DNA of 64,000 nt, taken from Antedon mediterranea (taxonomy: Eukaryota; Animalia; Echinodermata). A model generated the notes under the pieces. That model worked only from the letters and a program-made list of their open reading frames with translations, was not told where the DNA came from and did not search any database. Position numbers and translations under genes: made by a program. Positions 77-50,369 of this stretch are shown piece by piece. The stretch is from assembly GCF_964355755.1 (NCBI RefSeq), contig NC_092679.1:6044201-6108200 (forward strand), written 5' to 3'. Every line of letters starts with the position of its first letter. Within the stretch, counting starts at the first letter, position 1.

Positions 77-140
77 ATGATTTGTCCAGTATCTATGGAA
101 CTTGACCATGCAGGAGAGACTAGCTGTGATGATAATAATG
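77..140 (+). CDS. Candidate alternative first coding exon V1 (tier 1, phase 1) of type II membrane collagen-like protein
   Basis: ATG at 77; open frame MICPVSMELDHAGETSCDDNN plus 1 base; strong donor GTGAGT at 141; phase matches the acceptor at 21527. Confidence 0.55.
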
Positions 141-864
141 GTGAGTTAACTACTCTAACCTTGTATTCTTCCTCTGGATGTAGAGGAGGTACATCTACAA
201 GCTAATCTTATAAATATTAGCTAATAATATAACTTTTACTTCCTTAAAGGTAAAGTGATGAAAAAGTTATATTTTCATAAATAAATTCATGGGGATCCTC
301 ATTTATTATCTTAACTCCATTCTCTCTCCCTCTTGAAACGTTTTTCGGCATTTCAACATTATGCTTTCCACGATTTGTTTCCACATTTTTCTGTTTTGGG
401 CAGGATGGTTTACTATGCTAAAGTTTACATTTTTCCTTTTAAATCTTTTTTTATTTGGTTATATTACCCAAAATAAAATTATAAGAAAAAAGGTTTTATT
501 TTACTTGCAAGAAGATATGGTTGACATTTATGAAGAGGGGTTTTCTACTTTTAGTGGCATTAGAGCTTGCTCCTGAGGCAGAATAGGCTGTTGTTGGTTT
601 ATCCAGCTCAGGTAAGCGGCACTACAAACATCACTGTTGGCATATAAGAATATATGGAGGTGAACTTCTCTTTATCATGGATGGGGTTAATCAGCACTAT
701 CTGGCTACAATATCTGTATTTATTTATTTGTAGGGCTATTTATATATTAACTGAAGATTTAATCTCGGCTACCAAATATATTATCTATTTGAACATCATC
801 TCCTCATTTTGATTGGTATTAAAACTGGAATGTGTAAAAAAAGGAAAAACATTTTTCTTGATCA

Positions 865-931
865 ATGTATGTCTGTCATCACTGGTTTCTGTGTCTTTTA
901 AGTATTGGAGAGAATGACTATGACATCATTG
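865..931 (+). CDS. Candidate alternative first coding exon V2 (tier 1, phase 1)
   Basis: ATG at 865; MYVCHHWFLCLLSIGENDYDII plus 1 base; donor GTACGT at 932; phase 1. Confidence 0.4.
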
Positions 932-1983
932 GTACGTACTGTACTGGAGAATCGTGAGAAGCGACTACTCTGTACGTCTATACATATCTTATTTGTGCTT
1001 TCGCTTTGTAATCACAAGTCAGGGGCGCCTAGGTGGGCTTTCCACTTCACTACAACACAACAACCAATCATGAACTCATCCAAACTGTCATGCTAGTGAT
1101 TGGTCAACTCACTTGTGTTTCACGTACACCCTTACGATACAGTACGTCCAAGTGGAAACCCAGCTTGACCACAGCAACTGTATTGAATAATTATTTAATC
1201 GTGGACGTTGGCATGTTGGTCAAGATAGGATTGATAGGCACAACTGATTATTTTGTTGATTTAGTCCAAATGGTCAAATTCTTTCAAGGTAGAAATACAG
1301 TACTTGCATTGAAAACACTTGAATGATGCAAATAACAGATTACAGTACATTGATTAATACAGATACATTACTATAAAAAATATGTTTACTTTTAGGAATG
1401 TTTGTGGCTATAATATTCACATTCAGACTGGTCAAACAAATATTAGCTATAGGTCTTCATTAATGAAGAAATTTATGTTAACAAATGCTTAAAGAGAAAT
1501 ACTGTTGTAGGATTCACACTACAGTTGAGTAATTTGATGACTTCTCCAAATCTATATAGTAATTCTAGTTGAGTGCATCAAGTCATAGGTACTATGGAAC
1601 CTTGTTAATACTGTTTTCAACAAGTTAAAATGTACAGTATGGTATTAACAAAAGGTTACGCTCAACCATAGCTAAACACAAGAGCCATTATGACTCTAAA
1701 ACCCATCACAATAGTACAATAGCTAAGGATGTACTTTACCGTACATGGCATACAATTAAACTTTTCCAAACCCTGTATGGAAAATCAGTGAAGCATGACC
1801 TGACTCAGTAGTGACGTTTCTTTAGGACCATGTTTTTTTTGCCCTGAGCACAACCCGTCACTCTGATCCAGTTCCTTCCTCTAGTTTTTACTCTCAAAAT
1901 AGTAATATCTGTACTAAGTTGGAGGGCAAGTGTACTATTTGATTCAGAAGTAATAATATCTGTTTGTTAGGCTTACCATCAAT

Positions 1984-2014
1984 ATGGATCAAAGTCAGGA
2001 TGTTGAAAATAGAC
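1984..2014 (+). CDS. Candidate alternative first coding exon V3 (tier 1, phase 1)
   Basis: aatATGG start; MDQSQDVENR plus 1 base; consensus donor GTAAGT at 2015. Confidence 0.55.
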
Positions 2015-2412
2015 GTAAGTACCTCTATTCTAAAATTTAGTTCTATTTGATACTTGTTGAGTTTTATGTTTCTTAATTAGGAAAGTGTATACTGTACCTT
2101 TTGTCATAGATAAAATATAGTAATAAATAATTGAAAATAGACGCAAGTTTAATTTTTTTAATATTCTAAATCTACAGTATATCTATTTGACAAAGTTTTA
2201 TGTTCTGAATTTGATGATGATTTGATTTGAATTTATTTGGAATGAGTATAAATACATTCAAAGTGATAACATTAACTTCTGTAACTGACATAACAGAGAC
2301 ATACATTTATAGAAGATTTTCCAATATAGCCCAAAAAGCGTTATTATTTCCATTTGGGGTAGTAGTTAGTAGTGTGTATCTGTATATCTGTATTTTTTAA
2401 GTCATAGGTAAA

Positions 2413-3040
2413 ATAGAGTATAATAACCAGTGATGAAGACCAATTATAAAATTATTTAATTGAAACGTTTCTGTTTAATATTTTAATAACTCTTGACAAT
2501 TGATACACTCTCACCGCTCTTTATTAAAGGAATACCGCCAAAAAGAAAATATGATAATATTGCATTCCATTTTTAGAAGTAAATTTTATTAATGGAATAG
2601 CACACATCGTCCTGTTGTTGTCGAGCACTTTTAAAAAGACTATAAAAGGTAAAAATTAAACAACCTCCGCATCTGGTCCTTTTGTGGTTCATTACATTTG
2701 TTGTTATAGCAAAGTTTATCGTGTCGGCTTTTTATATAGAGTATAACAACCAGTGATGAAGACCAATTCTTATAAAAATATTTCATTGAAACGTTTCTAT
2801 TTTGTTAATAACTCTTGACAATTGATACGCTATCATCTTTAGTAAAGGAATACCGCCAAATAAGGAAATGTAATAATATAATGATATTGCATTCCATTTT
2901 TAGAAATGTTATTAATGGAATAGCACACATTGTCCTGTTGTGTTCGAAGAGACTAAAGGTAAAAATTAAACGGCCTCCGCATCTGGTCCTTTTGTGGTTC
3001 ATCACATTCGTTGTTATAGCAAAGTTTATTGTGTCGGCTT
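2413..3040 (+). repeat. Tandem duplication (about 320-bp unit, 2 copies), each copy with a degenerate hammerhead-like motif
   Basis: ATAGAGTATAA..ACCAGTGATGAAGACCAATT...TTGAAACGTTTCT begins at 2413 and 2736; shared body to GTGTCGGCTT. Confidence 0.8.
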
Positions 3041-5674: not shown

Positions 5675-5954
5675 GTTGTCCTAGTGGGTAGTTGTCCTAG
5701 TGGGTACTTGTCCTAGTGGGTAGTTGTCCTAGAGGGTAGTTGTCCTAGTGGGTAGTTGTCCTAGTGGGTAGTTGTCCTAGAGGGGAGTTGTCTTAGCGGG
5801 TAAATGTCCGGGTGGTAGTTGTCCTATGGGGCTTATTGTCCGGGTGGTAGTTGTCCTATCGGGGTTATTGTCCAGGTGGTAGTTGTCCAGGTGGTAGTTG
5901 TCCAGGTGGTAGTTGTCCAGGTGGTAGTTGTCCAGGGCGTAGTTGTCCGGATAC
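5675..5954. repeat. 15-16-bp tandem repeat (GTTGTCCTAGTGGGTA / GGTGGTAGTTGTCCA) ending in GGATAC; likely one end of a foldback/MULE-type element
   Basis: Tandem units directly visible; no partner end found in the window. Confidence 0.75.
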
Positions 5955-8840: not shown

Positions 8841-9003
8841 ATGAAGATGGATGAAAACAGCAGTTCAACAATTGAAATAGAAACTTTGAATACTGTTGGT
8901 AATGTAGGCTTAACAGTGAACTGTGGCAGACAGATTGAAAATAAACGATTAACGGTCTTTAATGATTACCAGTGTATTGATGAAGTGGATCCTACTGCTG
9001 AAG
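8841..9003 (+). CDS. Candidate alternative first coding exon V4 (tier 1, phase 1)
   Basis: ORF MKMDENSSSTIEIETLN...DYQCIDEVDPTAE plus 1 base; donor G|GTAATG at 9004. Confidence 0.55.
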
Positions 9004-10021: not shown

Positions 10022-10221
10022 AAGTTTGCAGAAGCTTGGGTTTACTTTATAGAGTTGAATATTAAATAACTACTGTAAAGTCAATTTATAGCGCCCTCAG
10101 TGTGGTCTCTTTATTTAGCAAAAGTGGTCTGAAGTTTGCAGAAGCTTAGTAGGTTTACTTTATATATTTGAAAGATATAACTACTGTAGAGTCAATTGCC
10201 AGCGCCCTCAATGTAGTCTCT
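10022..10221. repeat. Degenerate tandem duplication, about 110-120 bp
   Basis: GAAGTTTGCAGAAGCTT...TAACTACTGTA.AGTCAATT...AGCGCCCTCA occurs twice. Confidence 0.6.
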
Positions 10222-10398
10222 AGTATTACCGGAAGGGTTTGTGGTTCTATTCCTATTGTTGCTCCAAACTTTATTCTCATTTTGTGCAAAACTTTGAGTG
10301 ACTTTGTGTAAAACTTGTGAAAATGTTACCTATGTGCAAATGTTTAACCACTTTACATAAAACTTTTAACCCTTCAATTTTGTAAACCTTTAAGCCAT

Positions 10399-11636: not shown

Positions 11637-11697
11637 ATGTCGGCCAACGAGTTCTACCATTATCCAAGTAATAACAACGGTTGGAATGTAATTTACT
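11637..11697 (+). CDS. Candidate alternative first coding exon V5 (tier 1, phase 1)
   Basis: aacATG; MSANEFYHYPSNNNGWNVIY plus 1 base; consensus donor GTAAGT at 11698. Confidence 0.55.
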
Positions 11698-14105: not shown

Positions 14106-14181
14106 ATGTCTTCCCCTGGGTCTATGTTACACCATAATCAACACTTCAACCAATTGGACAGAAGTCCCACTACTGACTATG
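14106..14181 (+). CDS. Candidate alternative first coding exon V6 (tier 1, phase 1)
   Basis: aacATG; MSSPGSMLHHNQHFNQLDRSPTTDY plus G; consensus donor GTAAGT at 14182; G+CA gives Ala into exon 21527. Confidence 0.65.
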
Positions 14182-17617: not shown

Positions 17618-17690
17618 TTAATTTAAAGCCCCAGACAAAAAAAAAAAAATATTCTAAAGTTATACAGTACTTCGTATTAAAAACAATCAT

Positions 17691-21000: not shown

Positions 21001-21526
21001 AATTGCTATTTTAGTTCGTACTTTAATGAATAAATTACAGACTTACATTAGTTAATGATGCGTGACAGTTTTGTCATAAGATATAGTACAATGGCCTATA
21101 CCTTCTATTAAATTCTATTACGTTATAGTATACTTGATCACAGTGCATGAATTTAGTTAAACCCTATTTGTATACTGTACTTTGACTCTTATCCAAAAAC
21201 TACTAAACTGGCACAATGGTACAGAAGGAGTCTGGACTGAAGGGCATAAGTTCAGACAGTCGCCAGCTAGTTTATCCTTACTTTCAATCTCATTACTTTC
21301 TTTCTCCATCCTTTAAATGGCAATAATGTGCATAAAAGTAACATTTACATGAAAAAAAAAGAGTACAGCCATCAAGCTAGTGTGTAGAACAGCTCTATGT
21401 GGCTCCCATGGACATACTGTAATAGGGTGTAATTCTACAATACGGGCATTTTTTTTATTCTTACACATAATAAAATAGTTATCATCGATGCACAACTAAT
21501 ATATTTTTCTTGTTCGTTTTTTACAG

Positions 21527-21866
21527 CACCACTACCAACTTATTTACCACCACCAATATATGGCAATAAACCACATGACAACAAGCTCCACGACCCAAAC
21601 CACCACTATGAAGAACTACCCAGCCCCGCCATGGTTGAAACAATGATAGCTTCAAACAACGGACCTGTAAGACCACCAAGCAGTGCCCCAACAGAGACAT
21701 ACGATGATGCTCGTGACAGCGGATGCTCACAGTTCTCGCAACCGGAAGCTGATCAGCAGATGATGCAACTCGACAGACTTGATTCAGGTTTTTCAAGTTT
21801 TACCGGAACAAGACTACCACTGACGCAGCAACAGCTAAAACCAAGCGTAAAACAGATGAATCCAAG
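21527..21866 (+). CDS. Internal exon (phase 1 to 2): Pro/Ser/Tyr-rich cytoplasmic region of the type II membrane protein
   Basis: Polypyrimidine tract plus TTACAG acceptor; only one open frame (PLPTYLPPPIYG...HHYEELP...DSGFSS...KQMNPR); donor AG|GTATGG; phase matches exon 34329. Confidence 0.75.
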
Positions 21867-24589
21867 GTATGGTGTAGCCACACAATTTATTGATTTTATA
21901 CTAATTTAATGTAAACCCACTGTCTGTTCTTCCTAAAATTGGCGAGTAAAACATTCCTCATTGGGCAACTTCAATCTTACAAAAAAGTAAATAAGGTACA
22001 GTAAGGCAAATGTATTAGTTGTAATACTGTATGGGAATTTGAGAAAACAGAGGATTCAGTAGAATATTAGTATTGAATATAATAACAATACAGTACCTAA
22101 AGAAATTGTTATTGGTATAGAAATATATTACCATTTTTTTCGAAAGACATTTCTTTTTTTTAAAGTCTGTTTAATTTCATAAAATATTTAGTAATTAAAA
22201 GAAATGTTCTTTTTTTATTATTATTTTGTTTGAAAGAAATAAATGTTAAATTGAATTGAATATATCTATGTATACAAACACACAGAAGAGAATGATAACA
22301 TCTTGTATAAGGCTGTGAAAGATTCAACTGGCTCGAAACCGAAGAATAGATGAGTTTATGTCTTGTCCTTCACCGCATATATGGAGTTTCGATTCAACAG
22401 TATAATATTCCAAATTTATGATACTTTAGTAGTTTCATATTAATATTGCTTCCTATTGCCCAGGGCCACTTTCTTGTCTCTTGTGTGTTCTGACCCATTA
22501 AGATTAACCAATTATGAGTGGTCAAGGCTGATTGACTGGTCAAGAAACGTTTCCTCCGTGCAATTAAGTACAGTACCCTGGCATATGTCTGATATAAATA
22601 ACAGAAAATCAAAATATTGTTAAAAATTTATATTTCATTTTTTGCCACTTCTATCAATTCTCCTTACATTACATGGCAGTAATACAAACAAAATGATATA
22701 ATACAGTTTCAAAAATATAATATAATATACGGCATGAGGATGGTACTGTACACTAACGTGGCAAAAAAAATTCATATTTAATTTCTTTGACTAATCTTGA
22801 CGCATCTTGAATGACTCAGACCACAGTATAGGTATTAAGTGTAATGTTCTTAGTCACTGTGACAAGAATTTCAGTGTTTTGAACTGCACTGTTATATGGG
22901 TCAAAAGGCTGTGCTTTTATGGTTTGATCATATTATCTTTCAGCATTAAATTAATATATCTCTAAACAAACTTTTTTTTCACACTGCTGCTCTAGCCCGC
23001 TACGTCACATGAGATAACTCATTCATTAGATGAAATCAAGCAGCAGTATAGTACTACATTTTGACATTTTTGTTAAAATGGAAACTCGACTATAATTTAT
23101 AGGTACCACCTGTTGAATCCAAAAAACTGCTGGGAAAAAAGTCTAATGACAAATCCCAAAGCATTTCTGGTATTTATGAGTCCCATGATATTACTATAAT
23201 TCACTGTCAGATAATCATTGAATTATTATCAAAACAGTCCATTGAAGTTTTTGTTTGTAATAGGATACTTGAAGTATCTAGGCTTGATGAAGTGACCCCC
23301 AGACTTGACCTTAGCAATAACAATAAGCGAGCAGCGTTTTTTGTAAGAAATATTCTTGTTCAAAGTTGAATTTACATAATTTTGCACGCACTTTGAAACA
23401 AGTGAGCATGTCTGTTTTTTGCCTCAAATAGCTACACAGTCTGGTGCCACATTAAAACAAAAAATACTCGCACCTGCAGCTATTTGGATACTGTACAGTT
23501 TATCCATGGAGGTAAAAATAAATAATTTGTTACCTCCATGGTTTATCTGATTATTGAAGGGAAAGGCTGCCTTATTGATGCTATAGCCACTAGCCTCAAC
23601 AGCTATTATAGTGTGGCTATCTGGTCTCTCCAGGAGACTTGAAAATATTGTATAAATAAAGTTCCTTTCCATCAACCCCTTGGACCTTTTCTAAACTTCC
23701 TATACAAAAACATCTAAATTATTTAAAGAATTTGTAGGTTTCTCAAGAATGTAGGCCAATGTCCATTTAATCCTTTCTCAAATAATTAAGAACTTCTTAA
23801 CTATTGTTTATACTGCTATTTTAGGTTTCTTTGAAGTTCAAGTTCGTTAAAACAAAACAAAACATTCATACTGATTGAAGGCCATTTTTACTACAAATAT
23901 CCTTGCTGCTAAAACTCCCAACAGCAGGCCATTGAAGGAGTGGTCAGCTAATCCTTGACCACTTCCCATATCAGACATCTAATGTTTGCTTTTAAAATTC
24001 AAGCCAGTCTTGAGAAGTTTATTATTGGTTTATGCTGAAATTAAATACTGTATTCTTTTGTTATTATTTTAATTATCTTGAAGGATAATTTGTATCATTA
24101 AATTAAGTCTTCAAGTAAAAATAGTACTGTTTAATTTTCCAATTAAACACTTCCTTAAAAAAATTAGACACCATGCCTGTAATCAATAAAGTACAAGGTT
24201 CACGATTGGTCAAAACCTGTTTAAAGCACTAGGTATGTGATTGGTCAAAAGCACTTATTTAAAGGTCATGAAATACTACATTTAGGACACTGCCTTGCTT
24301 ATTTCTTACTACTGTACATAGTAATTGTAAACTCTTAATTTTTACCAACTTACTGTACTACTGTATAATACGTTTTCCATGATTTTGTTTCCCGGTTTAA
24401 AAATAAAAAAATTCATTTTAATCAATAATGTTGTAGGAAATGTAGATCTTAGTTGTTCAACATTTTTCTTATTTACTGACATTACCAAAACAAAATTTTG
24501 GTAATTGAAAGTTCATAGTTTGCAAGACATTGTTCTTCTACCGCCGGTGAAGAATGGCTAAAATGGCGATTACTGTATAATTTTTTGTT

Positions 24590-24907
24590 TTATCTTTATA
24601 CTGGGTGACCTCTTCAGTCAAAGACTGATCTCCCAGAGGGCCCAGTTGGTGATCAGTGGCTGTGATGTACTAATACTGTTGTACTAATACACCGGGGTAA
24701 CCCCCTACTCGTCTCGAAAGATGTACTAGGTTCTTTAAAGTGCACACGAGCAAGTTGTGTACACTGGACCTACGGTTTATAGTCCTTATCCGAGAAGACT
24801 TGTTCTACCACCAGAACCATGGAGTGAGTGAGCCTCGAACCCCTGCCGATGTTATGGCTACGTGATTATGGTTCCACTGTCTTAACCGCTCGGCCACTCA
24901 CTCACTC
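24590..24907 (-). mobile_element. tRNA-derived SINE with Deu/Nin-like central domain
   Basis: Minus strand: A box TGGCCGAGCGG, B box GGTTCGAGGC, then CTTCTCGGATAAGGACTATAAACCG...TTAAAGAACC...GAGTAGGGGGTTACCCCGGTGT; second copy at 43656-43904. Confidence 0.8.
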
Positions 24908-25109
24908 AATTATTACCTGAATTGTTTATGAGGACTTCGGACAGGGTCCGCTGCTTTTAGCCATGCATACACTAATTGTATATCTTTTAAGTAGTTATAT
25001 AAATTGAGTACAACGTCATAGTTGACTGAACATGGTTCATTGTACCTTATACTTATTCGCATGTGATACAATACTTTGTATTTATTTAGATCACACACCC
25101 ACTAAAATA

Positions 25110-25690
25110 TCAAGACCTAGTACATTCTTTCCCATTCATTTGATGTCTCCAGCTATGAGATGATGCAGCAATTAGTATTGTAGAATACTTACAAAATATT
25201 TACAACCCTGGAAAATGCATAATCACCAATGATGGTTCATTATACTGTAGGCCTTTTACCGACATTTCAAACAATGTGTCTGGCTTTCTGATTTTAACAC
25301 ACCCTCTGAATTCATTACAGTACCATTCATTTGATGTTTCTAACTATGAAACAGATCTTTTGTACAATAGGCCTACAGAATGACAGTAATCAGTACAATG
25401 ATGGTTTAATTGTATTATTAACAAAGGTTTCAAACAAGGTTTATTTAAATAACAAACCCTCCAAAATGTTAAAAGCTAGGCACATTCTTTACCATTCATC
25501 TGATATCTCCAGCTATGATCCAGAACTCTTGTACAATACTTGTTATTAAGAAAATCACACAATTTCTGTAATAACACCCTGGAAAGTGCATTCAAGTGCT
25601 AATAATGATTGTTCATTATCTTGATCCAACATTTCAAACATGGCTTATATAAAATAATACTCTAAAGTGTCAAAAGCTAGACACATTATA
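25110..25690. repeat. Old degenerate tandem repeat (period about 180-200 bp)
   Basis: CCATTCAT.TGAT.T.TC.A.CTATGA recurs at about 25133, 25323 and 25493; ACCCTGGAAA.TGCAT occurs twice. Confidence 0.55.
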
Positions 25691-27196
25691 TTATATTTTA
25701 TTTATGTTAAAGGAAAGTCTTTAAACAGTGATTGGGTTCGCTTTTGACAATCCTGGCTTTTATATATATTTTTATGTATTCTGTTGTAATTGTAATGAGC
25801 CGATATTGAATAAATCAAACCAAATTATATTCTATTATTCATGTGTCTAGAATACCTGAATAGAATGTCTTTTTATAGATTGAGTTTGAAGTTGATGTTC
25901 TTATTTTTAATGACTGTACTCTGTATTAAACAGATATCAGAAGCGGATTACAATTCTATATTTAGAAGCGGTTACGTTTGACTATGTTACCAATTGTATT
26001 TGTAGATTTTTATTACATGATCGAATCAGAGTGCATTAGTGATCTCCTAGAACACCATAAAACGCATTATTTCCGAAGGGCCCTGGACTCCCCAGTGTAT
26101 TTGCTCACTACAATCGTATGTGCCCTCCACCAAAATAATCCTGGATCCGCCCCTCTGGATTAGGATGAAATTTAATTTGAGCAAATTCGTAATTATTCGA
26201 TAAAAACGACAGAGGGAGGCATACCATTGTTTTAGTAACATCTAACGTTTGAAATCAATACCAGATCAATACCATGCATAATCCCACACGTTATTAAAAA
26301 TAAATTTTCTCTTGTGGGGTTATTAATTTTAAATCATTTACGTTTTTGGATCTCTTATGATATTAACTACTCAATCGATAAAATCATTTAAATCTTAAAA
26401 ACTCATTTTATCATTAATCAAAAATTAACAGATAGATTACATATCAATAAAATAATCCTATGAGAATATTTCTAGGCGGTATTCAGACATACCGTCATTT
26501 TGGAAGCATCCCCTACGAAGGTTTGTTTAACAGAGTGTCCCCAGGATATTTTTTAGATCATTATTTTCAAATAAAATAGAGGATAATATCTTGTACTTGA
26601 TTAGCAACAAAGAAATTCAATCAATTAAAGGGAAAGCGCATAACCTTTTTTATTTTTTTTTAAAGTTGGCTTTGCTACCTATCCTAATTTACTGCAGTAA
26701 TGATCCTCTTTATAAATTCATACAGTATTTTGTAATACTGTTTAATATCTTTTTTCAGCTGGTTCATTTTCATTACTAGCCTAAACGTTTTGTAGCTGAG
26801 AAGAATAGGACTGATTTTTAAAACATAAATTGTAAATGAATCTATAATGAGTAATTGTAGGCTAATGTTAAAAAGTAAGTTCTCTCTTGTTTACCCATTC
26901 TACATCCTAAATCCACAATGAGCTTTGTTCATACAATTTATCCAACCTTTCTTAAAAGATTCCAAAGATAATTTTTAAGACCATTTATAAACTAATTAGG
27001 CTGCCTTATGGAGATGGAATCAGTTTGATTAATTTACCATTGGGCATAAATTGTAGGATTAAACTGATTTAATCGCAAACTTAGGGTCATGGAAACGCAA
27101 ATAAAGATGTAACGATAATGAAAAACAACAGAGAACATTCAGAATCTTGGTGATGCGTAATAGTTTTAGAGGCTACAGTGATTTACAGTTAGAATA

Positions 27197-27414
27197 ATGA
27201 ACTGGAACAAAAGGAACCTTCCGCTACCGGACTACCATCCTAATGTGTATTGTACAGGCTTTACTTTCAACCACGAAGATGCACCAGTATACTATACTGC
27301 AGGCTTTAATAAATTCAGGAAACCAGCAAACTACAGCAGATGGGAAGAGTCTAACAGCACAAGAAGGGCTCAGCAGGAAACAGTACCACCCCTAGCAAAT
27401 CGCCAGTCCTTACA
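27197..27414 (+). CDS. Candidate alternative first exon (or phase 1-to-2 cassette starting at 27189) V7, Tyr-rich
   Basis: ORF MNWNKRNLPLPDYHPNVY...ANRQSL ends CA|GTAAGA (phase 2); CA+A gives Gln into exon 34329; the upstream TTTACAG acceptor at 27188 is phase 1. Confidence 0.65.
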
Positions 27415-28245
27415 GTAAGACTGTTACAATTATGTTTCTACCATGTCTTCTTAAGACATTTAATTATTGACCTCGTGCCTAAATTAGTAATGATAATGGT
27501 TTTGTTTCTAGTAACCAGACACATTTTTGTTTATTGCAAAACTGTTTTTTTACATAGAGATGTCATAGGTCAGGTACAGGTAATACCAACATTCTTGAAA
27601 CTTGGGTATAGAGACAATATTGTATATTCCTTTGCACTTCTAAATGGCACTGATATATAAATGTGTTTGTGTATCGTTGAACTTTTGGTGTTATGTTACT
27701 GCTTATTGGAAAATCTTCGAATCAAAAAGCATTGTTCAATGTTAGTTTGCAGAGCTCGGTTCTCTTATATAAAAGTGCATGGACAAATAAACATTAGCAA
27801 ATGTTTGGCAAATAATGCTATCTCAAAATTGTCACCTCTGGCCTCTGCAGGATATTGTATTCACCTACTTGGTGTAAATTACAAGCTAACATTTTAGTGC
27901 ATTATAATATATCATTAATGTTGAACATTTATTTAAAGATACTTTGCAGCATCATTTTGCACTACAGTATTATTTGTTGTCATGCTAATTTGAGGTAAAA
28001 TTTGGCAAGTCATAAAACTCTATTTTCAGTTTTGTTTATACAAATACTTTACTTTCATCAAAATTGAATACAACAACAATTTAAGCACTTTGGCTCTTTT
28101 ATATTTAAATACCTTTTACCACAAAATTCTTTAGAACGTCGTCAAATACAAATATTTAACTTTTTGAATAAAAGTTTTAGAATTTAGAAACATTTTTAGA
28201 TTAGTTATGTTCAGAAGAACTGCCTAAATTCATACTCATACGGAC

Positions 28246-28256
28246 ATGGCGCCAAG
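28246..28256 (+). CDS. Candidate alternative first coding exon V8 (tier 2, phase 2): MAPR
   Basis: gacATGG CGCCAAG|GTAATG; good Kozak context. Confidence 0.5.
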
Positions 28257-30057
28257 GTAATGTTGTTATATTGTTATGTCGAGACATTTTATGCGATGTT
28301 TGTATTTAGGATTACAAGTTTTAGAATTGTATTTAAGTGAAAAATATGAATACTATTAAATTTGGAATACAGTACCAATTTTAACCAAATTTTGAGCTTG
28401 AATTTTTGGAGAGTTTAAGTTTGATGGTCAGATTTTAGAAATGTTAGTTTGTACAGTTTATATCTGCAAAGTTCTATCCATAAGAATTTGTTATTATAAA
28501 AAAAATTGTTATATAGTATAAACAAATAAAAATGTTTTTTTAGTTTTTTAAACGATCAAGATATTCTTTAATTTGATTAATTTTACCAGGCAGTTTGAGT
28601 CTGATTTGAATCGTTTGTTTGTATTTAAAACTAAAATGAAGAAAGTGTATTGTATTCAAATACAACATCTTGCCAAATCAAACTTTGACTTTGTCCTTTA
28701 TGGGTGTCAATCTAGGTTTCATCTTTGAACAAGTTCCAAAGTTTAATAGGGTTATCGCAAGTCAATATTATATCCAGCAGGTTTAAAGCACAGCCGGTTG
28801 GTATGTATTTCAGTTTCAGTTTTTGTACTGACCAATTTTGGGACTTTTTTGGAGCTCATTAGGACAGGAGAAAGGACTAGAAACTTTTGCTTGTTGTGTT
28901 CTTAATATTCATCATAAATGGTTGCAGTATCGATTCTTTTTACGGTAAAAATAATTGATTTTTACGGTAAATATTAAGAAGATTTCCATGATGATGATGA
29001 ATGGTTGTTTTAAAGAATAAAATCAGAAAGGATGACATGACTTTTTTTAATGCTGCCATAAGTGATCAAAAACGAGAATCTACCTCTGTTTCCATTTAAA
29101 TGTTGACAATGTATATAATACCACTACCTCTTCACAAAAAGTAATCTTAAAAAGAGGCCCTTGTTAGCATAAACAAGTCGGCTAAACCTGTGGTAGCCAC
29201 TGTGAACCGTGAACGACCATGCAGTAGGTTTCCTTTGGTCCACGGTTAGAATCCCATCCCCGATTTCCGTGTGTTTCACCTTACGAGTTGGAATACATGT
29301 ATATAGTGCACCATCTTTCGGATGAGATGTTAAGCAATGGTTATCATATGAGGAGAACCAAAACTAGGCAAAAGGTGGCTCATCCTGTGACACCACTTCA
29401 CCTTGTAAATAGAAAATAAAACTATTTCAAAGAGGATTTGATAGAAAACAGGAAAGTCAAGAAGGAAATATTTCGGGATGGATAGGGTGAAATTTAAGGT
29501 ATTGTAATTTGTTGGAAAGCAATCTTTAACATGTGATTAAATTTCAAGGGTACAACTTTCTTTAAATCATATAGTTTCATTTTCCAAATTGTATAAATAC
29601 ATTAAAACCTCCTCCCTATCCACTGCATCCTTTTTCTCAATTTATGCTCAATGGATAGGTATACATAGTTTATGAAAAACTTATATTGTATTTTACTTAA
29701 CTTTCAGTATTTACACAACTCTAGGATGGGCTGAATTTGAATGTAATCAACATCAAAGCATGGACCTATACATTAGGTTTTAATAATTTAATTAATCCAA
29801 TTTATAAGTCCATGATTGGCAGATGATTGCAATGTTAGGGTGGTGTTATGTACCTGTCAGTCTCTCATTAAAACTCATCAAACCATGAATATAAATTGGT
29901 AGAATATACAATTTTACACACCTAATTAAACCGACACTATAAAGTTAGTAAATTCATGAAGGCAAAAAAACAAAACAGGCAAGTAATACCTGTAGTTAAC
30001 AAAATATCATCCTGGCCATTTGATATTGAAAAGAAAACTCAATCAGATAATGTCAAT

Positions 30058-31312
30058 CCATCAGATAAAAGTGGGAAAAGTTAGTCAATTACACAATTAA
30101 TGTTTTTTTATGTGTTTCTTGGCGTTTTGGCTATTTGATATTGAGGACAATCTCCATCAGATAAAGGTGTGAAAAGTTACTCAATTACATAATGTTTTTT
30201 TATGTGTTTCTTGGTGTTTTGGCTATTTGATATTGAGGAAAATCTCCATCAGATAAAAGTGTGAACAGTTACTCAATTACATAATGTTTTTTTATGTGTT
30301 TCTTGGTGTTTTAGCCTTTGAGGACAATCTCCATCAGATAAAAGTGTGAACAGTTACTCAATTACATAATGTTTTTTTATGTGTTTCTTGGTGTTTTAGC
30401 CTTTGAGGACAATCTCCATCAGATAAAAGTGTGAACAGTTACTCAATTACATAATGTTTTTTTATGTGTTTCTTGGTGTTTTAGCCTTTGAGGACAATCT
30501 CCATCAGATAAAAGTGTGAACAGTTACTCAATTACATAATGTTTTTTTATGTGTTTCTTGGTGTTTTAGCCTTTGAGGACAATCTCCATCAGATAAAAGT
30601 GTGAACAGTTACTCAATTACATAATGTTTTTTTATGTGTTTCTTGGTGTTTTAGCCTTTGAGGACAATCTCCATCAGATAAAAGTGTGAACAGTTACTCA
30701 ATTACATAATGTTTTTTTATGTGTTTCTTGGTGTTTTGGCCATTAAGGACAATCTCCATCAGATAAAAGTGTGAACAGTTACTCAATTACATAATGTTTT
30801 TTTATGTGTTTCTTGGTGTTTTGGCCATTAAGGACAATCTCCATCAGATAAAAGTGTGAACAGTTACTCAATTACATAATGTTTTTTTATGTGTTTCTTG
30901 GTGTTTTAGCCTTTGAGGACAATCTCCATCAGATAAAAGTGTGAACAGTTACTCAATTACATAATGTTTTTTTATGTGTTTCTTGGTGTTTTGGCCATTA
31001 AGGACAATCTCCATCAGATAAAAGTGTGAACAGTTACTCAATTACATAATGTTTTTTTATGTGTTTCTTGGTGTTTTGGCCATTAAGGACAATCTCCATC
31101 AGATAAAAGTGTGAACAGTTACTCAATTACATAATGTTTTTTTATGTGTTTCTTGGTGTTTTAGCCTTTGAGGACAATCTCCATCAGATAAAAGTGTGAA
31201 CAGTTACTCAATTACATAATGTTTTTTTATGTGTTTCTTGGCGTTTTGGCTATTTGATATTGAGGACAATCTCCATCAGATAAAAGTGTGAACAGTTACT
31301 CAATTACATAAT
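30058..31312. repeat. 85-bp satellite, about 14-15 copies
   Basis: CCATCAGATAAAAGTGTGAACAGTTACTC... at 30331, 30416, 30501 and onward; two internal unit variants. Confidence 0.95.
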
Positions 31313-31536
31313 TAATTTTGTTTGTAGGTGTTCTTGATTTGCTGGCCATTTGATCCTGAAGAAAAACTTTATTTGATACTTTTCAAACTGTGTAAATTTC
31401 CGTTCTTAAAGTAAATAATTAATTCCTTCTTATGATTTAAAAGTAGACCAACTAGTTTTACGTTTCATTTGGGTAAGTATTTAGGTTGCCTAGTTTGTAA
31501 TTATTCTTGGATTTTATATTTAGATTATCGTTTACA

Positions 31537-31541
31537 ATGAG
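31537..31541 (+). CDS. Candidate alternative first coding exon V9 (tier 2, phase 2): MR
   Basis: acaATGAG|GTAAGT, consensus donor; too short to verify by composition. Confidence 0.35.
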
Positions 31542-32790
31542 GTAAGTGGTACATTTTACATTTTAAGAAAGATTTTATTCTGTTCTTGGTTTTTTTAACA
31601 GCATATGTAAAGTACCAGATTAGCATAACTAAATATTGATGTATTTGTACCAACAGAGAAGAGTGAAGTTACTAATTTCACTCTTCTGTGATAACCAAAA
31701 TGCAGTGAATTGGTATTGGTGTGTGGTAAACAATAAACAAACATAGTAATGCTGTAATATTTCAAGTAAACAACAAATATTCTGAAATTTCCGGACTTAT
31801 CAGTATGACTTGTTTACTTTGTGGATGTAATGTACAATAGTTCATAAGATAAAATCTCATAAGATCCTTTAAGTATTTGGATATATGATAAAAGTATTTT
31901 ATTATGATAAAAGTCTACCAAAGCGTTTGTATAGTTATAAACTGTTTGTTTACATATAAAGTTACCATAGTTTACACTATTAGCATGACCTGTAGAAGCC
32001 AAGTAATAAAAAAAGACATTTACATTTTTAAATGCTTCATATTAACTGTCTTGTTTTGAAGGTTTGCACGACGAAATCAAATGTTTGCGGTACACGATGT
32101 ATATATAGTTCTGAAAAGAACTGTTAACTTTGATCGTTCTCATCCCTGAACTTTATATCAACTTTCTTGCTAATGTTGTATTAATGGGTCATACCTACAT
32201 GCAACAAAAAAACTCTCAAGCCAAAGAGTTAAGATCACAATGGGTGGCTAAAATCTATAAACCACATTGAGACTTATTTATAAAAGGCTTGATAGGCTGG
32301 CAGAGGCGAGGTGAAACATCCTAAAATAACTTTTAATGTATATGTCATGTATGCTAGTTCTCCATCATCCTAAGGTTTTAATACTGTTCCGGTGAACTCT
32401 ATACTGGAGCTTCAAAGTGCTGGAGAACAGAGCAGTGTAAATGGTTCCTCTGCTTTTCTTCATTTTTTGGTTATTTTGGGATATTTTATGAATAATTTTA
32501 TAGGCGCTATTTACTGTAAAACTACCATTATTATTATTATTTAACAACAAAGAGCAAGATTTTTCTTCTCGGAGTCTGAGTATAGGCCTATATTTGATCA
32601 CCAGGAGAAAGTATTATCCATATTATAGACTCAGTGTAATGTTCCTTGAGATACTCAGACATGTTACTTTACAGTTTAGTTAATACTTCATGGGTATCCT
32701 AATGCTAATTCTTTCATCAAACATAAGTTTGGAGTACTAAGATACTTTACATGCTTTTTAAAATGAGCATCGTATTATGGTGTGATCAGC

Positions 32791-32801
32791 ATGGGTGGAA
32801 G
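32791..32801 (+). CDS. Candidate alternative first coding exon V10 (tier 2, phase 2): MGGR
   Basis: agcATGG GTGGAAG|GTAAGA. Confidence 0.4.
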
Positions 32802-33480
32802 GTAAGAATCTAGACTTTATACATTTCACAACAGGATTAGACACATTACAGATGTAAAACATGTTCTATAGGGGTATAATCAGGGAAGTATATTGTGTAT
32901 ATTGGCAACATGGGGAGGGCATTAGGTGGCCTTTGATCTCTCATATCCATAACCATAAGTGTTGTATTGTGGTTTACCATAAACTTGAGGTTTTGCTGTT
33001 TTGTGTACTCACTACCATTTTGTTCTACCGTAACTATTTTTAAAGATATGTGTGTTCAAAAGCTTTCTTTACCTAAATTATACTACAGTACAGAAAGAAT
33101 GATATTAGTATAATTATTAGTAAGTAAGCCTGAATCCGATAAAACTACTTATTTTACTATGTAATTACGATAGTTATATTATTACTATTATTAGGTTCTT
33201 CAAATCTAGCCAACAAATTTTTGCGGTTTAAATTGTTTTGACCCAAATTGTACCTGGTATTTCCATTACATATTGACACACAGTAGGTGTATTAGAGTCA
33301 CGCTATGAGTACTTGGTAGAATGAAACTTCCTTTTAGATTAGTATATTACATTATGAAATATGTAATTCAACTTATTGTGACTTTTTGGTTCACTATGAA
33401 CATTTGTACCGTGTTTCTTCCAACGATGCGCTTTAAACAGCTTGCAAGAGCTTTAGAAATAATCTCACAGGAAATTTGAA

Positions 33481-33521
33481 ATGATGGCGGAGGAAAAGGG
33501 AGTTAGGGACATTTCTCCAAG
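33481..33521 (+). CDS. Candidate alternative first coding exon V11 (tier 2, phase 2): MMAEEKGVRDISPR
   Basis: aaATGATGGCG...CCAAG|GTCAGA; AG+A gives Arg into exon 34329. Confidence 0.6.
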
Positions 33522-33586
33522 GTCAGAGTTCAGGAATATAGATTTACCAATTATTTATTGGTGGTTCATTATTCAATAAGGGCTAG

Positions 33587-33766
33587 TGTTATGTTATGTT
33601 TTCACTATGTTATAGATACTGAAACTAGAGACAGATGTAAATACAAATAAAGACTGTTATTTTATTCAGCTCAAGAAGTCGTGTCTCCATAACAACTTCG
33701 TGTCTCTCGTGCGCCCTCTATATCTTCTAGAAGATCATATTAATTATTTAGTACAATAATGTAACA
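33587..33766 (-). mobile_element. Solo LTR (180 bp)
   Basis: TGTTA...TAACA inverted termini with exact 5-bp TSD GCTAG (33582-33586 and 33767-33771); AATAAA present; orientation tentative. Confidence 0.75.
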
Positions 33767-34328
33767 GCTAGATGTTTATTTATGTTAGCCCAATAGATTA
33801 GATGCCTTTTTCTTACTGGTATGTATTGTTACCTGTCTTGATCCATGTAACAGTTTACTTATATAACTATATACAATATATCAACAATTGAACCAGGAAA
33901 TAAATAACAAGTTATTATTATAAGTTGCTTCTAAAAATACATTTTTTTTTCAGAATTTTTGTCTCATTTCATGCCTCTCGTACGTACGTGACTTTGAAAA
34001 TGTATATTAATTTCAATTTTTTCAAAGAGTTAAGTTAATTAACATAAAGTTATTACTGAATTTGACTGTTGAAATACATAGTTTGCTTAAAAATAGAGGG
34101 GGCACTGTAATGTTAAACTTTTTTATTAACAACCATACTATACATCTTGGTACTATGACATTGCTGCTATGTACAAGCTAAAAATATGATCCGTCTGACT
34201 GGAAAATTAAAAAACTGAAAAAATATTTTGTAAATATGCTATTTATAAAAATGTTCATATGTACCGGTAATAAAAAAAAATGTTCAATTACCACTTAATT
34301 TGAAAAAAAAATTAATTTATTCTTACAG

Positions 34329-34546
34329 AAAGAAACAAAACCCCCTTTATGAAGATTTTAACGGACAGCCTCCGGAAAAGAAAGTGTTCGTTATTGATGA
34401 TGACCTCAAGAAACCGACATCGTCGTCATGTTGCGGCAAATTGAAATGTTTCCGCAATAATTGTATCATACCAGTTGTAATCGTTCTTGCTTTGGCTGCA
34501 ATAGTTCTAGTTCTTCTGATGGTCTTTGGGGTCGTAGAACAAAAAG
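34329..34546 (+). CDS. Constant exon C1: cytoplasmic juxtamembrane region and transmembrane helix
   Basis: TTACAG acceptor; KKQNPLYEDF...SSSCCGKLKCFRNNC IIPVVIVLALAAIVLVLLMVFGVV EQK; donor G|GTAAAT; phase 2 to 1. Confidence 0.85.
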
Positions 34547-34895
34547 GTAAATATATTTATAATAAAGTTAAAACTAGACAAAATGAGCAAGTCTTGGAAA
34601 GAGAAATTGTTTATTTGAGGGGGATATTGAATATGTTGACTTAATCTATGTTATGTTCCACAGGCAAATCCAGTCTTTATAAACAGAGGGGTGTTAACAT
34701 TCAATATTAATAGTCTGTCAAAAATCATAAAGTAATTCATTATAATTTCATTTTACCAGCAATAGGGGGATCGCGCTTCCTCCAGGATTCGCCCCTGTGT
34801 CCAAAAGTCCAAAGAGAAGGAAATATTTTTTAAAAAGTTTAACAGCAATTTTTAATTGAAACAAATGTTTACTGATTATTTTTTGCTTTTTTTAG

Positions 34896-35044
34896 AATCT
34901 GGAGCAATTTCAGATGAGGTGATTCAGCCAGCTAGCACTTTATCACCGAGTGCTTGGCCAACTATGGATCCTAGCATGTCCCCGGAATATCTTCTGGAAA
35001 AGTTACTGTTACAACAAGATCAGATTTTAGAATTAACACAAAAA
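34896..35044 (+). CDS. Constant exon C2: stalk and start of coiled coil
   Basis: TTTAG acceptor; ESGAISDEV...LLEKLLLQQDQILELTQK; GTAAGT donor; phase 1 to 0. Confidence 0.85.
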
Positions 35045-35357
35045 GTAAGTTTTCTATTTTTTTTTCTCGCCAAATACATGTATTTTGTAAGTACTGTTGA
35101 TCAAATTTGAGGCTCAATGAAATAAGTAGCATTGAGACTGTCGGATGAATATTAAACCAAATGATTGAAGTGTACTTTTTAAACTAGAGATTATAACAGC
35201 GGAAATGATAATAAATAGGCCTAAGTAGCCTAGCTCTTTTGTGAAAAAAAGATGCATGTGGAGATTTTATTTAAAAAAAAGTAAATGTAGTGAAACCACT
35301 ATTGATTCTGTATAAAAAAATAAAAAGTTATTGTTAACTTTTGCTTTGTTTTTACAG

Positions 35358-35447
35358 ATTGAAGATCTAGAAAAGACTTTATCTGGTGAGGGTGATCAAG
35401 AACTAAATACTTCAGATAGTACACGTATCACAGTGAATTCTAACAAG
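35358..35447 (+). CDS. Constant exon C3: coiled coil
   Basis: TTTACAG acceptor; IEDLEKTLSGEGDQELNTSDSTRITVNSNK; GTATGA donor; phase 0 to 0. Confidence 0.85.
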
Positions 35448-35663
35448 GTATGATTATGAAACAGAAAACTGTAGGCCTACAATTAAAGTTAGTTTGCTTG
35501 GAGGGGGCTTAGGTTTAAAGTGCTTTAAGGCCAGTTCACACCAGACGTGAAAAAGTGACATGCTTCACATTCATCAGTAGACACCCAACCTGAAGAGGTT
35601 TGCATAGAAAATGTGTTACCTTGCTGCTGGGGGGAATCCAGCCTTTATATGAACAACAACATA

Positions 35664-36018
35664 TATATACGGCCATACTGCGTTGAAACACCGGTTCTCG
35701 TCAGATCACCGAAGTTAAGCAACGTTGGGCCCGGTTGCGTTCTGGATGGGAGACCGTCTAGAAATCGTGGCGGGTGCTGTATATACTGGAGAGTGATGGT
35801 GTAATGGTAATATCGGACTAGCATGTGATAGGCATGGGTTCGAGGTTATCTGTACCATACTAATTGCATCCTTAGGCAAGATGCTTTACTCTCATTGCCT
35901 AATCTGGTAGGCGCTGCACTGCTGGCTGCCGTGGGTCCGTGGAGGGCCTAATCCTAATTTCCTCACTGAGGACAAATATTAATACAAAATACAAAAAAAA
36001 AAAAATACAAATACAAAT
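35664..36018 (+). mobile_element. Chimeric SINE: full-length 5S rRNA-like head (35664-35785), tRNA-like unit, CORE-like segment and A-rich tail
   Basis: TACGGCCATAC...GATCACCGAAGTTAAGC...GGATGGGAGACCG...GTGCTGTA is 5S-like with complementary ends; then A box TGGTGTAATGG, B box GGTTCGAGG, TCCTTAGGCAAGATGCTTTAC and an (AATACA)n tail; no oligo-T terminator after the 5S part. Confidence 0.75.
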
Positions 36019-36238
36019 TCCGCAGGGGTGAGAAGGAACTTTTATAAAAGATTACAACTCTTCATTCATTATTCATGCATCACTACAGTATTTAAATTGA
36101 TACTTCTATTCCTTTAATAAATTCATTTTTTTTCGTTTCTTTTTTTAGTTACTCTTCAATTCACTTTCTTCCATCTTTTAGTCATCTATCTAGCCAACAT
36201 CTTATTGTATGATTTAATTTGTTATTGTTTTCTTACAG

Positions 36239-36355
36239 ATAAAAGAACTTGAACAGAGTCTAGAAGACCATAAGACAAATTCTGACAGTCGATTATCTGC
36301 AGAGGAATCAAGTTCTCAAGCTGCCTTGCTTTCAATCGCTCAGTTACAAGTTCAA
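36239..36355 (+). CDS. Constant exon C4: coiled coil
   Basis: TTACAG acceptor; IKELEQSLEDHKTNSDSRLSAEESSSQAALLSIAQLQVQ; GTGAGT donor; phase 0 to 0. Confidence 0.85.
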
Positions 36356-36719
36356 GTGAGTTAATCAATATACTGTGAATATGCTACTATAGCATACAGA
36401 ATGTAAACATCTAAAAAAAATCTTTTCTTTAAAAAAATCTAGTTGACCCAATTATTATTGTCAACTCTAAAACAAAGTTAGAATTGTGCCCCTTTCTTAT
36501 ACTAAAAAAATGTTTTGAAAAATGTATAAGTAGCACTTTACTTGGAATTTTCAAATAAATATTTTAAAATATTATATTGTGTCGAAAATATTAGTGGCTA
36601 CTTTAACTATAGATGGCAGCAAACATATCTGAATGATTAGTAGCCAAAAATTGTTTCTATGCACTTAACTGGTACTGTAGTGTTACCTGAAAATAGAGTT
36701 TTGGCCATTTTACTTTTTG

Positions 36720-37053
36720 CTTATTTTATTTATATCTCCATTGAGATCCAGCCACTGATAGCTACAGCATTGTCATTTTTTCAGTGCTAATTTTTTTTGT
36801 ATCTCCATTGAGATCCAGCCACTGATACCCACAGCATTGTCATTTTTTCAGTGCTTATTTTATTTGTATCTCCATTGAGATCCAGCCACTGATACCCACA
36901 GCATTGTCATTTTTTCAGTGCTTATTTTATTTGTAACGCCATTGAGATCCAGCCACTGATACCTACAGCATTGTAATTTTTTCAGTGCTTATTTTATTTG
37001 TATTTCCATTGAGATTCTGCCACTGATACCCACAGCATTGAAATTTTTTAGTA
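36720..37053. repeat. 67-bp tandem repeat, 5 copies (same family as 13190-13320)
   Basis: TCTCCATTGAGATCCAGCCACTGATA at about 36735, 36802, 36869, 36936 and 37003. Confidence 0.9.
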
Positions 37054-37093
37054 TTTGCCTTTTGATTTATATAATAATGTTGTTTATTTGCAG

Positions 37094-37201
37094 CAAATGG
37101 AAGATGATGATGCCATTAATGACAGAGTTGACGACATCGAAACTCTATTATCTGGAAAAGTTACTACACTTGAAACAAACCAAATGTCGTTGACAAGCAG
37201 G
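37094..37201 (+). CDS. Constant exon C5: coiled coil
   Basis: TTGCAG acceptor; QMEDDDAINDRVDDIETLLSGKVTTLETNQMSLTSR; GTATGT donor; phase 0 to 0. Confidence 0.85.
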
Positions 37202-37367
37202 GTATGTACTTTTGTATTATGTATAAATATAATACAGCATGCATAACATTTGGAGATTGAATCAAATTGAGGGAGAGATGGACAGAATTTGATAAAATAA
37301 ACTTATAAGAACATTGAAAAAACATACTAAAATTGTCCAAACATTTTTGCCCAATTCATGGATATTG

Positions 37368-37678
37368 GTGGAGCACTGTGGCGCAGTGGTTAGAGTATTA
37401 GACTTGCAATCAAGAGGTTGCCAGTTCAAGCCCCGGCACGGTCACTGCAGTGTTGTGTCTTTGAACAAGACTCTTTATCCACATTGTTCCTCCCCACCCA
37501 GGTGATAGAAATGGGTACCGGTATGTAAAAAGTACTGGGAAAACTCGTTTGTACGGGAGGAGTGGCGTACCCCCTACAAACATACACGCTTAGTGGAGTG
37601 GAGTGGCCCAAATGCTAAAGAAATGGGAAATGGGCACCACGGCCGTTAGCATTAGCTTAGGTTTCGACTTTACCTTTA
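37368..37678 (+). mobile_element. tRNA(Cys-like)-derived SINE with CORE-like body
   Basis: A box TGGCGCAGTGG, loop TTGCAAT, B box AGTTCAAGCC, then GTGTCTTTGAACAAGACTCTTTATCC...CCACCCAGGTG..AAATGGGTACC; ends TTTACCTTTA. Confidence 0.75.
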
Positions 37679-37777
37679 AGGGTGTCCGATGATATTTGAA
37701 AAAATGTTTATGGGGCCTTCTGTTGCTAATACTGATTTAAATAAATATAAATTATTTTTCTTTTATTCCTCATTCAG

Positions 37778-38017
37778 GTAAATCTACTTGAAACATCAGA
37801 CATGAAATTTGATGTAAAATTAACAACAGTTAACCACACTCTGACAGAAGAAGTTGACTCAGTAAGCAAAATGATGGGACCAAGAGGATACAATGGCTCG
37901 CAGGGACAGACAGGACCATCAGGGGCTGGTAATCTTAGCCTATGTGAATATAGCATTGCTCAGCATGGCAGCAGTATCAGTAATACCATCACTGAAGTTT
38001 CTATGACACCAACTGCT
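37778..38017 (+). CDS. Constant exon C6: end of coiled coil, short collagen segment (GPR GYN GSQ GQT GPS GAG) and start of Cys domain
   Basis: TTCAG acceptor; VNLLETSDMKFDVKL...NLSLCEY...SMTPTA; GTAAGT donor; phase 0 to 0. Confidence 0.88.
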
Positions 38018-38366
38018 GTAAGTCTTTGTTATGTTATCATTGGTACCAACAGATATGTAAATAATGCTTTTTCTCCTCTTAATCCTAATTATTTCGTCCT
38101 TTAAATGAGAGGTAAAGCTGTTGGTTCATATATTTCCATTTCACTGTCCTCTTACCGAGAATCATCATAAGCCAAACACACCAATAACTGAATACTAAAC
38201 TCATAAAGACACAATGTTCTCTTTTTTTTTCATCTTATTAGAGAACTAACTCTGTTTGGTGGTTTGGTATTCATTTGTTAAACCATGTGTTTTTTTTTTA
38301 TTGTACAGGATTTTCTGAATTTTGGATGTGCTTTTCACGTTAATTTAAATTTTTTCATTTTTATAG

Positions 38367-38567
38367 GATGATGTTGTATTTGGTGTTACCTGTTCCACAA
38401 GAGGTGGCAGTAATTATATTCTTAAAGTAGTTACTAGTAACATACCTGCAACACTGGGACAAAAAGAGTACACTTGCCAATGTGCCGGAACCGACACATT
38501 ATTCGAAAATGCTCCTAATGCTCGTTACTGCTATCTACATTACTGGAAGTGTCCAAAGATGAGTTAA
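38367..38567 (+). CDS. Terminal exon C7: Cys-rich C-terminal domain
   Basis: TTATAG acceptor; DDVVFGVTCSTRGG...YTCQCAGTDTLF...RYCYLHYWKCPKMS then TAA; AATAAA near 39229. Confidence 0.88.
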   Translation, partial: DDVVFGVTCSTRGGSNYILKVVTSNIPATLGQKEYTCQCAGTDTLFENAPNARYCYLHYWKCPKMS

Positions 38568-50255: not shown

Positions 50256-50369
50256 GTGAGTAACAAATTATAACTACGGTATTATATTATATAGCCTACA
50301 GTATGTAAATAAATGGAAATATATTCCCTCGAACAAAATATTATTCCCTCTGGGATGTCAAATCTTATA

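Follow-up and report, generated by a model that had tools for sequence, protein, structure and literature searches.

Organization of the locus

The stretch of DNA that we analyzed (64,000 nucleotides, hereafter the window) carries the Antedon mediterranea gene for XP_071963601.1, an uncharacterised membrane protein and the sole Antedon record in the collection searched. All features described below lie on the + strand. A shared cytoplasmic exon at 21527–21866, encoding PPxY, YEEL and DSGxxS motifs, is present in XP_071963601.1 and in 7/7 isoforms of Anneissia japonica, which are automated RefSeq models that differ 5′ of this exon; 95/115 of its residues are identical. Seven constant exons follow. 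The first (34329–34546) encodes an NPxY motif and the transmembrane helix, as indicated by splice joints, a predicted helix at residues 221–247 and hydropathy. Joints likewise define a spacer exon in which the coiled coil begins (34896–35044) and three exons of coiled coil (35358–35447, 36239–36355 and 37094–37201). Joints and the structure model together define the exon in which the coiled coil ends, six Gly-X-Y triplets occur and the head begins (37778–38017), and the last coding exon, comprising the Cys-rich, six-stranded head and the stop codon (38367–38567).

Sequencing run X1 contains seven GT-AG joints at depths of 135–175, none of which occurs in DNA run X2; as it holds spliced joints that X2 lacks, run X1 is presumed to be RNA. 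The joints form a chain from 21866 to 34329 and on through the seven constant exons. Because the joint from 21866 to 34329 is present in X1 and absent from X2, exon 21527–21866 can be assigned to the same gene, as a preliminary description of the locus had proposed. The last 479 residues of the protein joined from these coordinates are those of XP_071963601.1. The X1 contig over the shared exon begins exactly at the acceptor of 21527, as would be expected from a branch point. A branch at this position could also be no more than an intron together with one upstream exon.

The first exon of XP_071963601.1 lies beyond the window, and its 68-residue N-terminus has no counterpart within it; by sequence, the array of first exons described below extends past the window, with at least one further member outside. 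Literature searches by locus identifier and topic found no publication on the gene among the titles listed.

Protein architecture and relatives

Structure modeling predicts a type II membrane protein with helices at residues 283–439 beyond the membrane helix. Residues 1–90 of the RefSeq isoform have pLDDT <50 and are predicted to be disordered, and the Cys-rich head is predicted to be six-stranded, with a weak likeness to resistin and PCSK9. A trimer model scored 0.82 versus 0.01 for the best of three controls, with contacts agreeing at ≥88% and pLDDT ≥84. This mark was reached by 21/30 solved pairs (7/16 for animals) and by 0/23 single chains, with the proviso that coiled-coil trimers may pass through memorization by the model. 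We predict that the constant part forms a trimer of stalk and head and serves at the cell surface as a receptor or in adhesion. The collagen/coiled-coil ectodomain that had been proposed is borne out by prediction for the coiled coil; its collagen-like part amounts to only six triplets, and PF01391 does not match the Antedon protein, while 35/70 relatives match it at E 0.1.

Pfam returned no family at its cut-off, and the SRCR, C-type lectin, TNF and olfactomedin families gave no match (P0001, P0002 and P0009 at E 1). Sequence searches of the PDB yielded coiled-coil and collagen matches only, and with Foldseek neither model matched anything at E 0.001. The best structure match in the ESM Atlas was an unnamed cnidarian cluster (TM 0.75), the feature matches of 0.89–0.90 being uninformative. 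An RX[RK]R furin site is absent.

Its relatives form an invertebrate family that has no name and no Pfam domain but has conserved YEELP and RKxNPxY tail motifs. Of 150 matches, 99 were membrane-spanning relatives; 35 of these contain RKxNPxY and 33 contain Y[EQ]E[LIV], versus 0.05 and 0.59 in shuffles, a comparison biased in favor of the motifs because the search profile contained them. We take YEELP to be an SH2-type site, NPxY a PTB or endocytic site, and PPxY and DSGxxS ubiquitin-ligase sites. No SRCR or C-type lectin family is among the 25 listed of the 87 families for 70 relatives, and the UniRef name of a Nematostella relative, "Scavenger receptor class A member 5", is automatic. Variable N-termini recur: the Lingula ortholog (beyond crinoids, we use this term for score plus shared motifs) has four different N-termini with one joining point, and Patiria has two. 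Counting against the alternative-first-exon reading, only 2/20 further clusters examined have mutually exclusive N-termini.

Probable upstream first exons

The preliminary description listed 11 short frames, six upstream of the shared exon and five downstream, as alternative first exons in two tiers. Each of the 11 begins with ATG, is open and ends at a GT in the proposed phase, and joining them by coordinates gives open isoforms of 375–541 aa, in agreement with the projected ∼375–540 aa. Comparison with Anneissia separates them. Three phase-1 exons match strongly: 8841–9003 is orthologous to the N-terminal exon of isoform X2 (24/55 columns identical; z 12.4), 11637–11697 to that of X6 (17/25; z 10.5) and 14106–14181 to that of X5 (19/26; z 13.0), each reached by 0/1000 shuffles. 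The best alignment of exon 8841 begins at the ATG at 8847, probably its true start. The phase-1 exon at 77–140 is a moderate match to X4 (10/27; z 4.5; 1/1000 shuffles), and that at 1984–2014 is the probable counterpart of X7 (4/12; z 2.9), a match that we grade as weak because 8/1000 shuffles reach it and 42 comparisons were made.

A blind scan of all 539 phase-1 ATG/donor candidates in positions 1–21526 returned these same exons as the top match for X2, X4, X5, X6 and X7, in each case with the same donor; exon 1984 led with a score of 22 versus 14. The N-termini of X1 and X3 had no match in the window. The sixth upstream frame, 865–931, is open and in phase but matches 0/7 Anneissia N-termini, and is most likely a chance ATG/GT pair in a long AT-rich intron. 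By sequence comparison, then, the five matching exons are likely to be alternative first exons spliced to 21527.

We consider it probable that the locus is one crinoid type II gene with five first exons inside the window and one or more beyond it, its isoforms varying at the tip of the tail. Each upstream exon would be transcribed from a separate promoter and start site, active in particular tissues or stages, and would splice to the shared exon, yielding isoforms that differ in their first 11–68 residues only. Given the predicted type II topology and a constant body, only the cytoplasmic N-terminus would vary.

It is possible, if doubtful, that the promoters set the place and time of expression while the peptides are passengers, their conservation reflecting constraint on DNA near the starts. 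Consistent with this, the family-wide motifs all lie within the shared exons, so that the variable part is a mere tip (11–68 aa) of the tail; the peptides are predicted to be disordered; and, as originally described, they are mutually unrelated (0/15 pairs beat shuffles; best 45/500), with those of exons 1984 and 77 poorly conserved. The other three peptides, however, retain blocks of identical residues, and those of exons 14106 and 11637 are as conserved as the ectodomain (192/303). In both species, joining exon 11637 or exon 14106 to the shared exon creates a YxxL motif, exon 8841 carries a conserved YxxI, and one Lingula first exon completes a DSG motif known in other relatives. These features count against the passenger reading.

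Candidate frames downstream of the shared exon

In the full two-tier model, internal promoters in 21867–34328 would produce short-tailed isoforms without the shared exon, which would lose its PPxY, YEEL and DSGxxS motifs and retain NPxY alone. The five candidates (27197–27414, 28246–28256, 31537–31541, 32791–32801 and 33481–33521) are all open and in phase 2. The two best donors in the intron are 31541, the highest scoring, and 32801; a PWM donor rule at threshold 3 places 5/8 pairs in phase 2; the 72-codon frame at 27197 has 45% G+C versus 31% in its surroundings; and the eye that picked these frames was correct for 5/6 upstream exons. Against the model, however, a frame similar to the 72-codon one arises in 94/500 shuffles, none of the seven Anneissia isoforms lacks the shared exon, and no protein of this type was found among 7997 candidates or among 317 from a short-fragment search with residues 60–300. 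None of the 15 joints listed from run X1, which has 174 more, starts at a second-tier donor, and X1 contigs are continuous across donors 27414 and 32801 and acceptor 34329; contigs drop rare forms, so absence is not implied.

By a second donor rule, phase 2 is not enriched: we counted 13 pairs, including the shared exon's own donor, versus 10.8 in shuffles, 59/200 of which reach that number. The same test fails in the upstream tier (22 phase-1 pairs versus 17.5; 40/200 shuffles reach 22) and thus has no power here, since that tier is otherwise supported. The switch of phase between tiers, put forward as evidence, is a product of picking exons by phase. By sequence conservation alone, only the upstream tier stands above chance. 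We regard the two-tier model as improbable; its second-tier frames most likely arose by chance, as ATG/GT pairs in introns that are long and AT-rich. The proposed count of about 11 first exons in the window is not supported; conservation in Anneissia supports five of the upstream exons but not exon 865.

Still less plausible is a choice made by splicing instead of by promoter, with the upstream exons, though genuine, serving as mutually exclusive internal exons or as second exons that follow untranslated leaders. Variation in the untranslated 5′ part exists, as a single protein has multiple accessions in the case of Anneissia isoform X1 and of several Lingula isoforms, and a borderline acceptor lies at 8710, 5′ of exon 8841, but each supported exon has its own ATG aligned with or near the orthologous start, for 4/5 the preceding 250 nt contain no strong acceptor (a weak contrast, given a background of 0.51 per 250 nt), and four upstream stretches share three 7-mers versus 13.5 in random sets (exact words only; exon 77 was left out for lack of room).

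Discussion

The reading that we prefer, a single gene with alternative first exons upstream of one shared exon, would place a variable tip on a tail predicted to couple to tyrosine-based adaptors through its shared part; by analogy with ECE-1, the tips likely tune sorting or partners. The five first exons are absent from the sole Antedon record, conservation of the array and of the encoded peptides extends across two crinoid genera, and a similar set occurs in a brachiopod. The protein also represents an undescribed invertebrate receptor-like family, the head of which may have the fold of resistin; were that the case, this fold would gain an invertebrate relative anchored in the membrane.

A bolder scheme, which we hold to be a long shot, posits an ancient trimeric receptor family with a resistin-like head, extending from cnidarians to amphioxus, with promoter arrays in crinoids and brachiopods, mixed trimers and second-tier decoys. 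Were it true, trimers of mixed composition would form in cells with several active promoters, 84 combinations being available from seven tips, and subunits made from internal starts would lack the YEEL, PPxY and degron motifs and act as non-signaling decoys.

SCARA1–5, ectodysplasin and gliomedin have a type II collagenous architecture. The crinoid protein resembles this group in its tail, single membrane span, predicted coiled coil, Gly-X-Y triplets, C-terminal Cys-rich head and predicted trimer. It differs in having only six triplets, a long tyrosine-motif tail, no furin site and no Pfam match to the SRCR, C-type lectin, TNF and olfactomedin families.

Variable first exons joined to constant exons are familiar. 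In clustered protocadherins, UGT1 and GCNT2, several first exons are each joined to common constant exons, according to the account in PMC1885805. The variable exons there are large, highly similar paralogs encoding a whole domain, whereas those of the crinoid gene are 31–163 nt long, encode 11–55 aa in the window and are unrelated. Plectin, for which PMC8468861 describes a dozen first exons, is a closer parallel, even though it is a cytosolic cytolinker rather than a membrane protein and has no sequence relation. Human ECE-1, as described in PMC2567069, has type II topology, and alternative promoters give it four cytoplasmic N-termini; only part of the N-terminal cytoplasmic region varies, and localization differs among isoforms. 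With ECE-1 and plectin as precedents, the layout is not new, and RefSeq already contains the Anneissia isoforms as automatic models.

The crinoid gene shares with ECE-1 a predicted type II body with a variable cytoplasmic N-terminus, and with both ECE-1 and plectin a constant body preceded by short first coding exons that bear no relation to one another. It differs from ECE-1, a zinc protease with four isoforms, in encoding an unrelated coiled-coil protein with more N-termini (at least six in Antedon and seven in Anneissia). Should the tips steer sorting, the gene would amount to a compact equivalent of ECE-1 in an invertebrate, with a larger choice of variants. On the sequence comparisons made here, the gene likely works like ECE-1 or plectin, and not like a protocadherin cluster.

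The constant exons form part of one gene

The gene's final coding exon (38367-38567) gives a 100% match to XP_071963601.1, an uncharacterised crinoid protein (Antedon mediterranea, 554 aa), and a 75% match to LOC117105472 of Anneissia japonica. When the shared exon (21527-21866) and the seven constant exons are joined by coordinate, their product is identical to the C-terminal 479 residues of that Antedon protein. We sought splice joints by placing two sequencing runs, X1 and X2 (a naming separate from that of the isoforms below), on 21000-40700. Among the 15 joint rows shown, run X1, which was taken as RNA by guess only and whose contigs cover introns too, gave seven GT-AG joints at depth 135-175 (21866 to 34329, 34546 to 34896, 35044 to 35358, 35447 to 36239, 36355 to 37094, 37201 to 37778, and 38017 to 38367); none of the seven appeared among the rows for DNA run X2. 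Because the joint from 21866 to 34329 is found in run X1 and is missing in the DNA run, the shared exon is part of this gene, removing the concern that it belongs to another gene upstream.

An intron of the gene holds a full-length 5S rRNA-like copy (35665-35785, + strand; Rfam RF00001, 74 bits), likely a 5S-derived repeat, in a bin where depth reaches thousands in both runs. A tandem array (69 nt x 5.7 copies, 38557-38944) starts across the stop codon, and run X1 depth is 700-1000 in bins 38082 to 39395, higher than over the coding exons. Further tandem arrays have units of 85 nt (30057-31312), 67 nt (36718-37049), 18 nt (40784-41553, with long open frames in several frames), 28 nt (53858-54207), and 21 nt (58383-58776). 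An immunoglobulin I-set exon (49943-50260, +; E 5.7e-9) belongs to the gene that follows on this strand, a candidate PTK7-type receptor, and a 138-codon open frame (54348-54764, +) may correspond to the end of a LINE-type reverse transcriptase.

A single tier of probable first exons is conserved between crinoids

The preliminary description proposed about 11 alternative first exons in two tiers. All 11 frames are present with the coordinates and phases it reported, and joining them leaves the reading frame open, with products of 497-541 aa for the upstream tier and 375-446 aa for the second. The description is confirmed in part: what stands is a single tier of 5 of the 11 exons, well supported by conservation. 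The Anneissia cluster comprises seven isoforms (X1-X7, automatic RefSeq models) with seven distinct N-termini of 12-61 aa preceding the shared exon. Compared with these N-termini (42 comparisons, 1000 shuffles), the exons starting at 8841, 11637, and 14106 scored z 12.4, 10.5, and 13.0, each unequalled in 1000 shuffles; exon 77 scored z 4.5 (1/1000), and exon 1984 z 2.9 (8/1000, to be read against the 42 comparisons made). The sixth upstream exon, 865, matched none of the seven. When 539 candidate frames were ranked blind, X2, X4, X5, X6, and X7 each had as top match an exon of the preliminary description with its donor, and the X1 and X3 N-termini had no credible match among these frames of the window. 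The X1 N-terminus matches that of the Antedon RefSeq record (31/68 identical); no sequence in the window encodes the latter, so its exon sits upstream. With five matched exons inside and one outside, the array would number six or more exons in Antedon and, from the isoform models, seven in Anneissia.

A strong acceptor is missing from the 250 nt upstream of four of the five supported exons (0.51 expected per 250 nt), a weak result because the rule overlooks 2 of 8 true acceptors. None of 15 pairs of first exons is related, and in an exact-word comparison of four of the upstream stretches shared 7-mers do not exceed chance. The contig of run X1 that covers the shared exon starts precisely at the exon's acceptor, an indirect sign that fits a branch point; an intron plus one exon would give the same. 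Most likely, each upstream exon would have its own promoter and be spliced to 21527.

All isoforms retain PPxY, YEEL, DSGxxS, and NPxY (positions 76, 95, 153, and 185 of the RefSeq protein), usually WW, SH2, beta-TrCP, and PTB or endocytic sites, respectively. The variable tips are 11-68 residues long. In both species, two of them complete a YxxL that spans the junction, and another bears YxxI, which makes a sorting role plausible. Alternatively, the promoters may be tissue-specific and the peptides only passengers, a reading compatible with the proposed exon structure that we regard as possible and rather less probable.

Phase and the second tier

ATG/donor frames of the kind described are common in the sequence. 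Under a simple donor rule, 1-21526 holds 22 phase-1 pairs vs 17.5 in shuffles (40/200 reach 22) and 21867-34328 holds 13 phase-2 pairs, the shared exon's own donor included, vs 10.8 (59/200 reach 13). Pairs of at least 10 codons number 14 vs 8.8 (16/200) and 6 vs 5.9 (106/200) in the two intervals, and a PWM donor rule distributes pairs by phase as 7/5/5 and 2/1/5. Phase had been offered as evidence for the array; with no enrichment over shuffles in either tier, phase by itself shows nothing.

A real second tier of internal starts (candidates 27197, 28246, 31537, 32791, and 33481) is improbable. Frame 27197 has 45% G+C and two candidates end at good donors (31541 and 32801), but none of the seven Anneissia isoforms lacks the shared exon, and no protein without it is on record among 7997 candidates of 304-970 aa (3 hits) or 317 shorter ones (0/317). 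Only frame 27197 is long (72 codons), and its length is at chance level, equalled in 94/500 shuffles.

Conserved motifs across the protein family

A profile search returned 185 proteins at E 0.001. Among the 150 listed, the named relatives, all uncharacterised, come from starfish, sea urchin, sea cucumber, three hemichordates, amphioxus, Lingula, a bryozoan, annelids, molluscs, and Nematostella. Among the listed matches, 99 relatives span the membrane; RKxNPxY occurs in 35 (0.05 in shuffled tails), Y[EQ]E[LIV] in 33 (0.59), and both in 28, with a query profile that itself contained the two motifs. Between the crinoids, the shared tail exon (95/115 identical) is better conserved than the ectodomain (192/303). 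Five cysteines are invariant in the C-terminal head (38367-38567 and relatives), an unnamed domain that occurs in about 150 invertebrate proteins and whose structure weakly resembles resistin and PCSK9 modules.

Among 20 clusters looked up, many with one member and thus saying little on N-terminal variation, Lingula has a truncated form and four different N-termini that meet at a single point, and Patiria has two N-termini; those of oyster, amphioxus, sea urchin, sea cucumber, and Nematostella have nested or single starts only. In Lingula LOC106171098, the first exon of isoform X2 alone completes the DSG motif and bears a YLxP motif common to several other relatives, so that first-exon choice is predicted to settle the presence of a conserved motif.

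Comparison with known systems

Our literature search, which left supplements aside, found no paper on the gene or its family. The protein family to which the gene belongs is undescribed, and the layout is of a kind already known: we liken the gene to plectin, whose short, differing N-termini come, according to PMC8468861, from a dozen first exons.
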